DNA of 64,000 nucleotides from a virus: IMG/VR virus record IMGVR_UViG_3300027714_000004, positions 1-64,000 of that record. The stretch is one strand, 5' to 3'. The position numbers were made by a program, and so were the translations under genes. Position 1 is the first letter of the stretch. Each line of letters begins with the position of its first letter. Shown piece after piece: positions 47,024 to 51,059 of this stretch. The notes beneath the pieces were generated by a model that was not told the origin of the DNA, did not search any database, and was given only the letters and a program-made list of their open reading frames with translations.

Positions 47024-47455
47024 ATGAAAATAAAACGAAGAATGTACGCGCACACTCCCCCATTCAGCTATGTCCGCCATAGCAATGAAGAAATTTATCC
47101 TGACCCTATCAGCGAGACTCTAGAGTTCGAAAGATACTCGGATGGCGTTTCTATGAAAGATGTAGAAGACGGTCTGGATCATATCGATTACAAGTTCAAT
47201 GAAGGCGAACTTATTCAAGAGTTTAAGGATTATATCGACTCTACATACAACGCACACTATTGTACTTCTGGGATTCAATCCAGTGAAGTCATTATTGATC
47301 GTGGGCATGGTATGGGTTTCTTTCTAGGTAATGTGGATAAGTATAATGCACGTTATGGAAACAAAGGTGATGTAGTAGATCACCGAAAAGACCTTATGAA
47401 GGTATTACATTATGCTTTATTAGCATTACACACACATGATTTGGAAAATACGTAA
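47024..47455 (+). CDS. DUF3310-like protein (T7 gp1.7 nucleotide-kinase-like)
   Basis: HY...GFFLGNVDKYNARYGNK...DLMKVLHY; start uncertain (possibly 47153). Confidence 0.65.
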   Translation: MKIKRRMYAHTPPFSYVRHSNEEIYPDPISETLEFERYSDGVSMKDVEDGLDHIDYKFNEGELIQEFKDYIDSTYNAHYCTSGIQSSEVIIDRGHGMGFFLGNVDKYNARYGNKGDVVDHRKDLMKVLHYALLALHTHDLENT

Positions 47456-47462
47456 AGAACGT

Positions 47463-47658
47463 GTCTGGTAACTCAGACTAGTAGTATGTTGTTCCTTCTA
47501 CGATGAGAATGAGGATTAGTTGCCTCAAATAGGAACACGACACCAAGTAGGTCGGTAACTGGTACCGTTAGTCAGAAGCGCTGGAGATCGTGCGCGTGAA
47601 TGGTTATAAAGATAGGTTATCTTTAACTAAGGTCAAGGAAGGGGTTATGGCACCAGAT
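47463..47658 (+). ncRNA. Candidate structured ncRNA A
   Basis: No ORF in the track; nested helices found by eye (see findings). Confidence 0.55.
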
Positions 47659-47665
47659 AAATTAT

Positions 47666-48263: not shown

Positions 48264-48351
48264 GGAGAGTTGGCAGAGTGGTCGAATGCACCTGACTTGA
48301 AATCAGACGAACCGCAAGGTTCCATAGGTTCGAATCCTATACTCTCCGCCA
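48264..48351 (+). tRNA. tRNA-Ser(UGA)
   Basis: Long variable arm, loop CTTGAAA, CCA end. Confidence 0.95.
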
Positions 48352-48380
48352 TTTTATATAATACATTGATGAGATATACT

Positions 48381-49817
48381 ATGAATACTAAAGTTTTACT
48401 ATTGCTATCCTCTATATTCCTAACTGCATGTGGTGGTGACGAGTCGTCCACAACTCCTTTAGAGTCTGTTGCCAATACTCCGTCCACACCAACTGTTGCA
48501 GAACCTACGGATTTAGAGATTGCGTTAGAAGATCTCCAAGATATCATGAACGCAACGTCTCCGACTGGTTCCTATGAGGGTTATATCCTCCCAGAGAGCG
48601 ATGACTTCCTCAACATCCCCCAAGACCCCAACAACCCAATTACTGCTGAAAAAGTAGCACTAGGTAAGCTGATATACCACGAAACTGGTATCACTTCTGA
48701 TGGTCTGGGTAAGACCGATATGGATAACACGTGGTCTTGTGCGTCTTGTCACAATGGACAGAACGGGTTTAAGTCTGGTATTCGACAGGGTATTGGTGAA
48801 GGTGGTGTTGGATTCAACCATCGAACTTTTGCCGAAGGTATGGAAGAACTTGCTGATATCCAACCTGTAACATCCCCTACTGTTCTTAATACCGCATATC
48901 AAGAAGTGATGTTATGGAACGGTCAGTTCGGTAATGTTGTGGGTGGTATCGTTAATGTTGGTATTGATCCAGAGAGACACTTTACCGAAGGTACTCCTAA
49001 AGGCGAGAACTTACGTGGATTTGCAGGACTTGAAACTCAAGCACTCGCTGGTTTAGTGGTTCACCGAATGAATGCAGCAGAACCGGACTCTATACTATCT
49101 ACTAATGAGAAGTATCAGATGATGTTTGAGGCGGCATACGGAACATCACGACCGAATGATATGTTAGAGGCAGCTGCTCTTGCGATTGCCGCATACGAAC
49201 GTACTATACTTGCAAACCAAGCTCCTTTTCAAAAGATGTTACGCGGTGACGCAAATGCATTATCTTTAGAAGAAGTTGAAGGTGCGAAGGTATTCTTCGG
49301 TAAGGGTGGTTGTGCGGGTTGTCATAATGGCCCTGCGTTATCTTCACCAGTTGGTTCCTTGGCAAGTGAAGTCTTTATGACACTGGGATTCAATGACTTG
49401 GATATGTGGGAAGATACAGTTGGAGAAGTCAACCAAGCGACAAAAGAAGGTCGTGCTGGATTTACGGGTGATGAGATGGAGAAGTATGCTTTCAAAGTTC
49501 CACCACTATATAACCTCAAAGATACGAACGTGTTTGGTCATGGTGGTTCATTCACCTCTGTAGCAGATGTTGTTAGATACAAGATCATGGCAGTGGCAGA
49601 ACACTCTGAAGTCGAAAGTACAAACCTAGACCATCGTTTCGTCCCTCTGGACTTGACTGATGAAGAAGTATCTAACTTGGTGACTTTCCTAGAAGACGGT
49701 CTACATGATCCGGATTTGATGCGGTATGTTCCTGAAGAACTTCCTAGCGGTAACTGCGTAACTAACAACGATGAACAGTCTAGAGAAGAATTAGGGTGTA
49801 CCAATAATGGTCAGTAA
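48381..49817 (+). CDS. Di-heme cytochrome c peroxidase / MauG-family lipoprotein
   Basis: Lipobox FLTA|CGG; NPITAEKVALGK, CASCH, CAGCH and FKVPPLYN...GHGGSF motifs. Confidence 0.92.
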   Translation: MNTKVLLLLSSIFLTACGGDESSTTPLESVANTPSTPTVAEPTDLEIALEDLQDIMNATSPTGSYEGYILPESDDFLNIPQDPNNPITAEKVALGKLIYHETGITSDGLGKTDMDNTWSCASCHNGQNGFKSGIRQGIGEGGVGFNHRTFAEGMEELADIQPVTSPTVLNTAYQEVMLWNGQFGNVVGGIVNVGIDPERHFTEGTPKGENLRGFAGLETQALAGLVVHRMNAAEPDSILSTNEKYQMMFEAAYGTSRPNDMLEAAALAIAAYERTILANQAPFQKMLRGDANALSLEEVEGAKVFFGKGGCAGCHNGPALSSPVGSLASEVFMTLGFNDLDMWEDTVGEVNQATKEGRAGFTGDEMEKYAFKVPPLYNLKDTNVFGHGGSFTSVADVVRYKIMAVAEHSEVESTNLDHRFVPLDLTDEEVSNLVTFLEDGLHDPDLMRYVPEELPSGNCVTNNDEQSREELGCTNNGQ

Positions 49818-49974
49818 GAACGATATCACCGGAGATGCGATTCGATCCAAAACTCTATCTCAACAAGGTAGGGACAATTGGGACAACATCTTCGGTAAGA
49901 AGGATAAGGTTGATACAATTATACCTGAAACGAAAAAAGAAATCGTTATAAATAAAGATAGTAAGAAAGTATAA
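49807..49974 (+). CDS. Small phage protein (55 aa, not in ORF track)
   Basis: MVSKNDITGDAIRSK...NWDNIFGKK, a pattern I recognise from small phage ORFs. Confidence 0.6.
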   Translation: MVSKNDITGDAIRSKTLSQQGRDNWDNIFGKKDKVDTIIPETKKEIVINKDSKKV

Positions 49975-49994
49975 ATATAATTAAGAAGTTCACT

Positions 49995-50070
49995 GGGGGT
50001 ATAGCTCAGATGGGAGAGCGTCGCCCTTGCACGGCGAAGGTCTGCGGTTCGATCCCGCATACCTCCACCA
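49995..50070 (+). tRNA. tRNA-Ala(UGC)
   Basis: Cloverleaf, loop CTTGCAC, G3-U70 pair, CCA end. Confidence 0.95.
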
Positions 50071-50073
50071 TAT

Positions 50074-50247
50074 TCCCCACCGTACGGGGCTCGGTACTAA
50101 AGAGATGAACCACGCGCCTTTCATCGCGCACTAACTTGATAACTGCGATCTCTCATAACGTGCATGTTAAAAATGCCAAGCAGTTGAGTTAAGGTTCTCC
50201 AACCATAATAGTACCATTAAGAGCCCCGTACTCGTGGGGATCTTTTT
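50074..50247 (+). ncRNA. Candidate structured ncRNA B
   Basis: Closing helix of 7+11+7 bp, inner helices, and a T-run at the 3' end. Confidence 0.65.
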
Positions 50248-50281
50248 GCCTAAAATAATGTAAAATAATTGATATAAGCCC

Positions 50282-50310
50282 TTGACAATACATTCGTATT
50301 GGGGTATAAT
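50282..50310 (+). promoter_or_regulatory. Sigma70 promoter
   Basis: TTGACA-N17-TATAAT. Confidence 0.85.
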
Positions 50311-50339
50311 ATAGTATATTAAATTGAATTGGATATATT

Positions 50340-51059
50340 ATGTTTGTACATGCTCCTGTGACCTTGACCGAAATGACTGCTGTTACTACTGACACTGGTC
50401 GTCAATACATGACACCCGAAGGTGTGAATCTACCTTCTATCACTACTGTTCTTTCTATTCTCTCTCGCGACTCCATTGCTAAATGGCGTGCTCGTGTCGG
50501 TGAGAAGGAAGCAAACCGCATCTCCTATCGCGCATCTACGCGTGGTACGTCAGTTCACGAAATCTGTGAGAAGTACGTAAACAACGATCCTGACTGGAAT
50601 AAGTACATGGCAATCAACCCTGATAATGGGGAAATGAAGATGACCAAACGTACTCCTGATTTAATCGATTCGTTCTTGAAGATGAAACCAATCCTTGACG
50701 AACGTTTGACTACTGTTTATGCTCAAGAAGCTCCACTGTACTCTACCCATCTGGGTGTTGCGGGTCGTGTGGATTGCGTTGGTATCTTCGATGGTAAGTT
50801 ATCTATCATTGACTACAAGACTGCTATGAAACCTAAACGTCTTGACTGGATCAAGAACTACTTCATGCAAGAGTCTGCATATGCGATCATGTGGGAAGAG
50901 CGTACAGGAATGCCTATCACTCAGTTGGTGACTATCATCTCTGTCGACAATCACGAACCTCAAGTATTTGTAGAACACCGTGATAACTGGGTGCGGCCAC
51001 TTCGTGATACTATTGCTCAATATAACGAAGAGAATTCCGCAAATTCATTTGACATATAA
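50340..51059 (+). CDS. PD-(D/E)xK exonuclease (T4-like phage exonuclease)
   Basis: PSITTVL, RGTSVH, AGRVDC, IIDYKT and YFMQ..AY motifs. Confidence 0.88.
   Translation: MFVHAPVTLTEMTAVTTDTGRQYMTPEGVNLPSITTVLSILSRDSIAKWRARVGEKEANRISYRASTRGTSVHEICEKYVNNDPDWNKYMAINPDNGEMKMTKRTPDLIDSFLKMKPILDERLTTVYAQEAPLYSTHLGVAGRVDCVGIFDGKLSIIDYKTAMKPKRLDWIKNYFMQESAYAIMWEERTGMPITQLVTIISVDNHEPQVFVEHRDNWVRPLRDTIAQYNEENSANSFDI

Follow-up and report, generated by a model that had tools for sequence, protein, structure and literature searches.

The stretch of DNA analysed here, which we call the window, comprises the first 64,000 nucleotides of the virus record IMGVR_UViG_3300027714_000004, an IMG/VR virus contig of 145 kb that is 88% complete. 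The last tRNA of its tRNA cluster, tRNA-Ala(UGC), is followed after a spacer of 3 nt by a segment of 167 nt that is predicted to fold into a long rod carrying a branched domain, and this element is present in one copy in the source contig. The features of the locus are as follows.

49947..49954, plus strand: T4-type late promoter motif TATAAATA, distal copy (from the sequence)
49970..49977, plus strand: T4-type late promoter motif TATAAATA, proximal copy, 17 nt 5' of the tRNA
49995..50070, plus strand: tRNA-Ala(UGC) with encoded CCA, last tRNA of the cluster (ARAGORN; Rfam tRNA model, 64.8 bits)
50074..50240, plus strand: structured RNA proper, 167 nt from the 5' strand to the 3' strand of helix P1a
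50224..50247, plus strand: local terminator-like hairpin (50224-50239) and U-rich tail (50241-50247), from a terminator scan
50243-50247, plus strand: T-run (from the sequence)
50282..50310, plus strand: sigma70-type promoter TTGACA-17-TATAAT, matching the consensus at 12/12 positions
50340..51059, plus strand: PD-(D/E)XK exonuclease gene, the downstream neighbour (Pfam PF12705)

The sigma70-type promoter lies outside the RNA and serves the next (early) unit. The hairpin at 50224-50239 is an alternative to the pairing of the rod and is followed by TCTTTTT, and the plus strand has no open reading frame of note over the element. An earlier note on this DNA had pointed out the AGAGAT at 50101, the ATCTCT at 50148, the T-run and the two copies of the late promoter motif, all of which are in the sequence.

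Two neighbouring regions may be mentioned. A gene for a MauG-type protein, like di-haem cytochrome c peroxidases, occupies positions 48270-49817 just 5' of the late tRNA unit; it is found in the RNA-bearing genomes G001 and G003 and is missing from two complete relatives that have no RNA. Further upstream, a non-coding gap of about 200 nt lies 5' of tRNA-Asp (47455-47665); its fold energy is the same as that of shuffled sequences (z = 0.01) and Rfam gives no match to it.

Predicted fold and covariation

The minimum-energy fold of the element has a free energy of -65.1 kcal/mol, to be compared with -40.0 +/- 4.0 kcal/mol for 200 shuffled sequences (z = -6.25), none of which (0/200) reaches the stability of the native fold; the minus strand also folds stably (z = -4.98). 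All six helices listed in the earlier note are found where it had placed them and are reproduced by the minimum-energy fold, which contains two more, a GCGC hairpin (50114-50117 with 50126-50129) and an invariant hairpin (50160-50165 with 50173-50177). The resulting architecture is a closing rod of about 24 bp (P1a-c) that carries a branched domain (P2-P6), with the following parts.

50074..50099, plus strand: closing rod P1, 5' strand, partner 50209-50240; P1a, TCCCCAC 50074-50080 with GTGGGGA 50234-50240; P1b, GTACGGGGCTC 50082-50092 with GAGCCCCGTAC 50221-50231; P1c, GGTACTA 50093-50099 with TAGTACC 50209-50215
50107..50111, plus strand: P2 5' strand, GAACC, with GGTTC 50193-50197
50114..50129, plus strand: P3 hairpin, GCGC/GCGC, missing in a divergent subgroup (group B)
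50132..50146, plus strand: 5' strands of P4 (TAACTT 50132-50137, with GAGTTA 50186-50191) and P5 (AACTGC 50141-50146, with GCAGTT 50180-50185)
50147..50159, plus strand: invariant unpaired loop GA-UCUCUC-A..AC, candidate working site (alignment and predicted folds)
50160..50177, plus strand: P6 hairpin, G(U)GCAU/AUGCC, with an A/U-rich loop (alignment)
50180..50240, plus strand: 3' strands of P5, P4, P2 and P1c, P1b and P1a (fold and alignment)

A search for homologues anchored on the downstream PD-(D/E)XK exonuclease, which has 319 relatives in IMG/VR, and on a conserved core pattern recovered 41 plus 13 IMG/VR contigs and 40 metagenome contigs. The family covariance model R1 (176 positions, 50 pairs, nine helices modelled) scores 191.4 bits on the window at 50070-50245. 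Its matches occur exactly once per locus and once per genome, always 3' of a tRNA.

The earlier note had proposed covariation among homologues as a check. In an alignment of 43 distinct sequences fitted to R1, 92.8% of the cells hold a standard pair and 38 of the 50 pairs show compensatory change on both sides; in a control where the partners were slid by 1-3 columns, pairing falls to 33-48%. The count was repeated on a MAFFT alignment blind to structure, where 87.4% of the cells are paired and 18 pairs are compensatory; shuffles gave 7.3 +/- 2.0 such pairs, and slid controls 2-7. Compensatory changes occur in 11/11 pairs of P1b and 5/6 of P1c, and P2 (5/5), P4 (6/6) and P5 (5/5) covary in full. 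P3 is paired in 100% of the cells where it is present, and the stem of P6 in 99.5%. An all-against-all scan of the columns added one covarying pair, which lengthens P2 by one; the rest was clade-driven noise. A chance fold is excluded because the homologues covary, and the compensatory changes in the aligned sequences show that the fold has been maintained by evolution. In the solid helices, G-U and U-G pairs outnumber A-C and C-A pairs by 36 to 12 when read on the plus strand, and this threefold excess, together with the fixed orientation of the element, favours an RNA read from the plus strand.

A large asymmetric loop holds the invariant GA-UCUCUC-A beside the near-invariant P6 (GYGCAU/AUGCC), whose stem hardly varies and whose loop ranges in length from 6 to 13 nt. 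The UCUCUC is invariant in 43/43 distinct sequences, and folding predicts it to be unpaired in the window and in most relatives. The junction CAUAA at 50204-50208 is semi-conserved. Some members have an optional extra hairpin between P5 and P4, variable in sequence and length, which has a single insertion site and its own complementarity. The earlier note had also suggested that AGAGAT and ATCTCT could form a pseudoknot or an alternative fold; this pairing is not conserved in group B, where the purine tract instead supplies the 5' side of helix P2.

A search against Rfam 15 at the gathering score, and permissively at E<=10 over 49900-50400, returned only the tRNA and chance-level matches (ciona-mir-92, DUF2693, tmRNA_permuted). 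The idea that this is a structured RNA of no recognised family has thus held up: we are dealing with a real RNA gene whose structure is strongly conserved and whose family, a candidate new entry for Rfam, is absent from that database.

Phage lineage and conserved context

The genes of the source contig are T4-like. Its closest isolate is Phage C48C1, filed under Kyanoviridae, with 71% identity in the exonuclease, followed by Synechococcus myophages with about 44%; psbA was not found in the contig. Identical or related DNA is present in contigs from Tara Oceans and other marine metagenomes. When three variants of the family were compared by blastn with 50,697 phage records, C48C1 was the sole match, and the core pattern had 0 matches in 185,579 prokaryote genomes, hence no homologue in hosts and no copy in prophages of that set. 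The family is confined to one uncultured marine T4-like lineage related to Kyanoviridae, with Phage C48C1 as its only representative in GenBank.

RNA-bearing genomes encode 8-10 tRNAs each; two complete relatives, with terminal repeats and 1-2 tRNAs, have no copy of the RNA anywhere in the genome, and at loci that have no tRNA 5' of the exonuclease an ORF for a membrane protein takes that place. Since complete close relatives do without it, the RNA is accessory, a part of the expanded tRNA region. We profiled the presence and absence of the ORFs of G000 in two RNA-bearing and two complete RNA-less genomes. In this comparison of two against two, 26 ORFs co-occur with the RNA, those annotated being lysozyme, tail-fibre parts and chaperones, and the MauG-like haem protein, and none of the 26 is a candidate for an RNA-binding partner.

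The surroundings of the RNA were compared in 31 distinct versions of the locus (86 loci). The structured RNA lies 3-20 nt 3' of a tRNA in 31/31 versions, and this tRNA is Ala-UGC in 30/31 versions and Asp-GUC in one clade. The late motif TATA[AT]ATA was found by script 7-40 nt 5' of the tRNA in 27/31 versions; three further versions have it between tRNA-Gly and tRNA-Ala, for a total of about 30/31. A U-rich tail of the form GGGGA-Y-Y-UU is conserved after the closing helix in all members, although the U-tract itself is weak (UUCUU) in many of them, and a sigma70-type promoter for the exonuclease unit lies 3' of the element in 22/31 versions. The order of the unit is thus late promoter, tRNA, structured RNA, U-tail and next early promoter. 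The conservation of the late motif just 5' of the tRNA fits co-transcription of the two from a late promoter, a link to the tRNA and to late promoters that had already been proposed from the window and that the relatives make more plausible.

Traces of rearrangement occur at several of these loci. In the Asp-GUC clade (locus L025 at 2257-2290, also L028, L029, L127 and L177), an incomplete repeat of the 5' arm separates tRNA-Asp from the RNA, an arrangement that suggests exchange of the tRNA by recombination. Locus L003 has a duplication scar at 2027-2500, the same in L011, in which a small unit has been inserted between flanks made up of a repeated, incomplete version of the RNA's 3' half (R1, 17.5 bits, 2248-2403), the promoter and the exonuclease's first codons. 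The inserted unit carries a TTGACT-17-TATAAT promoter of its own as well as a strong terminator, and it has no match in Rfam.

Other differences concern the interval between the RNA and the exonuclease. Many relatives have a conserved second hairpin, GTGACYA...TRGTCAC, 3' of the RNA's tail and 5' of the -35 box that serves the exonuclease (L004:2407-2450, L003:2027-2065, L013:2403-2445); it is missing from the window and may act as an operator or as an additional terminator. Between the early promoter and the exonuclease, some relatives have a small ORF whose product, probably a membrane protein, is about 47 aa long (L001:4270-4413, with equivalents in L080, L081 and L047); the window has none. 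In Phage C48C1, the annotated CDS0083 (L001:4170-4265), a 'hypothetical protein' of 31 aa, is contained in the 3' half of the RNA's counterpart there and is probably a misannotation.

Known RNAs and possible roles

The nearest parallels to this arrangement are RNA C and RNA D of phage T4, late RNAs whose function is described as unknown (PMC9697503, PMC3014915). RNA D (species 2) and RNA C (species 1) are stable RNAs other than tRNAs, encoded directly 3' of the last tRNA in the order tRNA-Arg, 1 nt, rnaD, 6 nt, rnaC. Like them, the marine RNA adjoins the last tRNA of its cluster on the same strand, and the late motif upstream of it makes a timing like that of the late T4 RNAs probable. The structures differ, however: in RNA C, a T arm like that of a tRNA is combined with a closure resembling an acceptor stem, whereas the marine RNA has a 24-bp rod and another branched core, and T4 has two such RNAs against one in the marine lineage. 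With filters off, R1 has no match on the stretch of T4 that holds rnaC and rnaD (L201:1909-2172). The marine RNA and the T4 RNAs are analogous, in position and in probable timing, and not demonstrably homologous. An unrelated RNA thus sits in the same niche, 3' of the last tRNA in a unit with a late promoter, which suggests that RNAs at the tail of the tRNA cluster recur among T4-like phages under selection and are more than an oddity of T4. The T4 RNAs have been known for decades and their function is still described as unknown (PMC3014915, PMC9697503); the strong covariation of the marine family, its invariant loop and the existence of natural genomes with and without the RNA provide a defined structure and concrete targets for mutation.

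Other marine myophages, Melnitz among them, encode two-piece (permuted) tmRNAs (PMC9004378), which share with our presumably stable RNA a relation to tRNA-Ala and an occurrence in marine T4-like phages. The tmRNA_permuted model gives weak scores here, 14.8 bits at 50043-50092 (threshold 47 bits) and 17.1 bits in L003. A tmRNA was rejected, since these scores come solely from the T arm and acceptor end of a tRNA-Ala that is complete, anticodon included; ARAGORN calls a normal tRNA-Ala and no tmRNA. In addition, the rod has its C-rich strand 5' and its G-rich strand 3', the reverse of an acceptor stem. Sequences read by eye have no conserved tag reading frame, and the GCA-UGU-UAA in P6 of the window is not conserved among the relatives so read.

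Our favoured explanation, which we consider probable, is a stable RNA of an uncatalogued family that is released from a late tRNA-RNA precursor and acts in trans, with the invariant loop as its working site. Late in infection, a promoter of the TATAAATA type would drive synthesis of the precursor. The nucleases that mature the 3' end of the tRNA would also make the 5' end of the RNA, and its 3' end would result from termination at the U-rich tail after the closing helix, perhaps with the help of the alternative hairpin there. Both ends would be shielded by the G+C-rich rod, and the single-stranded GA-UCUCUC-A loop beside P6 would bind a protein or a complementary RNA. We infer the discrete RNA species, its ends and its timing from the arrangement of these signals in the DNA.

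The rod and its tail can also be read as a cis-acting element that ends the unit, a complex intrinsic terminator that would also stabilise or insulate the 3' end and would have no function in trans. Its task would be to bring the late tRNA unit to an end and to keep 3' exonucleases away from the tRNA precursor. As in intrinsic terminators, the unit finishes with a G+C-rich helix and, immediately 3' of it, a U-rich tail, which is conserved; the hairpin at 50224-50239 is itself terminator-like, and the element always stands between the late unit and the next early promoter. Yet an intrinsic terminator is a simple hairpin, whereas the 'loop' enclosed here is a domain of 120 nt with covarying internal helices, an invariant 9-nt unpaired loop and an invariant hairpin, all of which a terminator does not need, and the U-tract is weak in many members; we regard a purely cis-acting role as unlikely. 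A DNA-level element, for instance a cruciform or hairpin with a part in replication, recombination or packaging, would account for the good folding of the minus strand (z = -4.98), and the duplication scar of L003 and L011 tells that the region recombines. This idea is exceedingly improbable in view of the roughly threefold excess of G-U over A-C on the plus strand, the fixed orientation with respect to the tRNA, late promoter and U-tail, and a multi-branched architecture with covarying internal helices that is typical of RNA. The earlier note had considered a ribozyme, and invariant unpaired nucleotides on a structured scaffold next to a tRNA would suit a self-cleaving or otherwise catalytic RNA. 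No self-cleaving ribozyme model of Rfam is listed at E<=10, however, nor does any other known ribozyme family match at that threshold, and the scan for extra covarying pairs revealed no conserved pseudoknot, so that we give catalysis hardly any credence.

Two further alternatives specify what an RNA acting in trans might do. The note had raised the possibility of a 6S-like decoy, which would bind the sigma70 RNA polymerase. Its length of about 170 nt, the long helix that closes both ends, the asymmetric internal loop between P1c and P2 and the late promoter context recall 6S RNA (RF00013), and AsiA and MotA are not known from this phage group, a point counted in favour of the decoy. But 6S RNA has a single central bubble, whereas the marine RNA has a branched interior (P3, P4/P5/P6 and the optional hairpin), and in group B the 5' strand of the would-be bubble measures no more than about 3 nt; RF00013 has no match at E<=10 on 49900-50400 and none at the gathering score in the window. 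We deem the decoy very unlikely. Somewhat less remote, and still improbable, is a late riboregulator whose UCUCUCA loop would pair with UGAGAGA in the ribosome-binding region of early leaders driven by sigma70-type promoters, so that early messages would be shut off or destabilised late in infection, in an RNA counterpart of T4 RegA/RegB. The loop is predicted to be unpaired, the late motif lies 5' of the RNA, and 8 of the 15 plus-strand TGAGAGA sites in the genome of the window are in early-type leaders, 6-11 nt before an ATG; six of the leader sites follow an exact TATAAT-class -10 box by about 17 nt and one follows a GATAAT. Against this, the complementarity extends over only 7 nt and the flanks do not lengthen the duplex, the duplex energies with the leaders are about 2 sd better than average without being outliers, the leader motif is equally frequent in relatives that have no RNA, and the idea was found post hoc. 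If true, it would mean an RNA-based translational shut-off from early to late in T4-like phages, and a first lead to the role of RNAs encoded in tRNA clusters, T4 RNA C and RNA D included.

Two more specific ideas about the conserved parts were rejected: P6 as a decoy of an anticodon loop, given the variable length of its loop, and mimicry of an anti-Shine-Dalgarno sequence by the invariant loop, given that the motif enriched upstream of genes is AAGGA/AGGAG and not GAGAGA.

Finally, many of the early genes of G000 between 67000 and 90000 that have sigma70-type promoters share a leader of regular form, TATAAT, about 17 nt, (U)UGAGAGAG, 6-11 nt and ATG, as at the starts 67070, 67281, 68097, 88128, 88821 and 89271. 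The (U)UGAGAGAG is a purine-rich ribosome-binding motif other than Shine-Dalgarno, and it recurs in related phages with the RNA as well as in those that have none; other genes have AAGGA/AGGAG.
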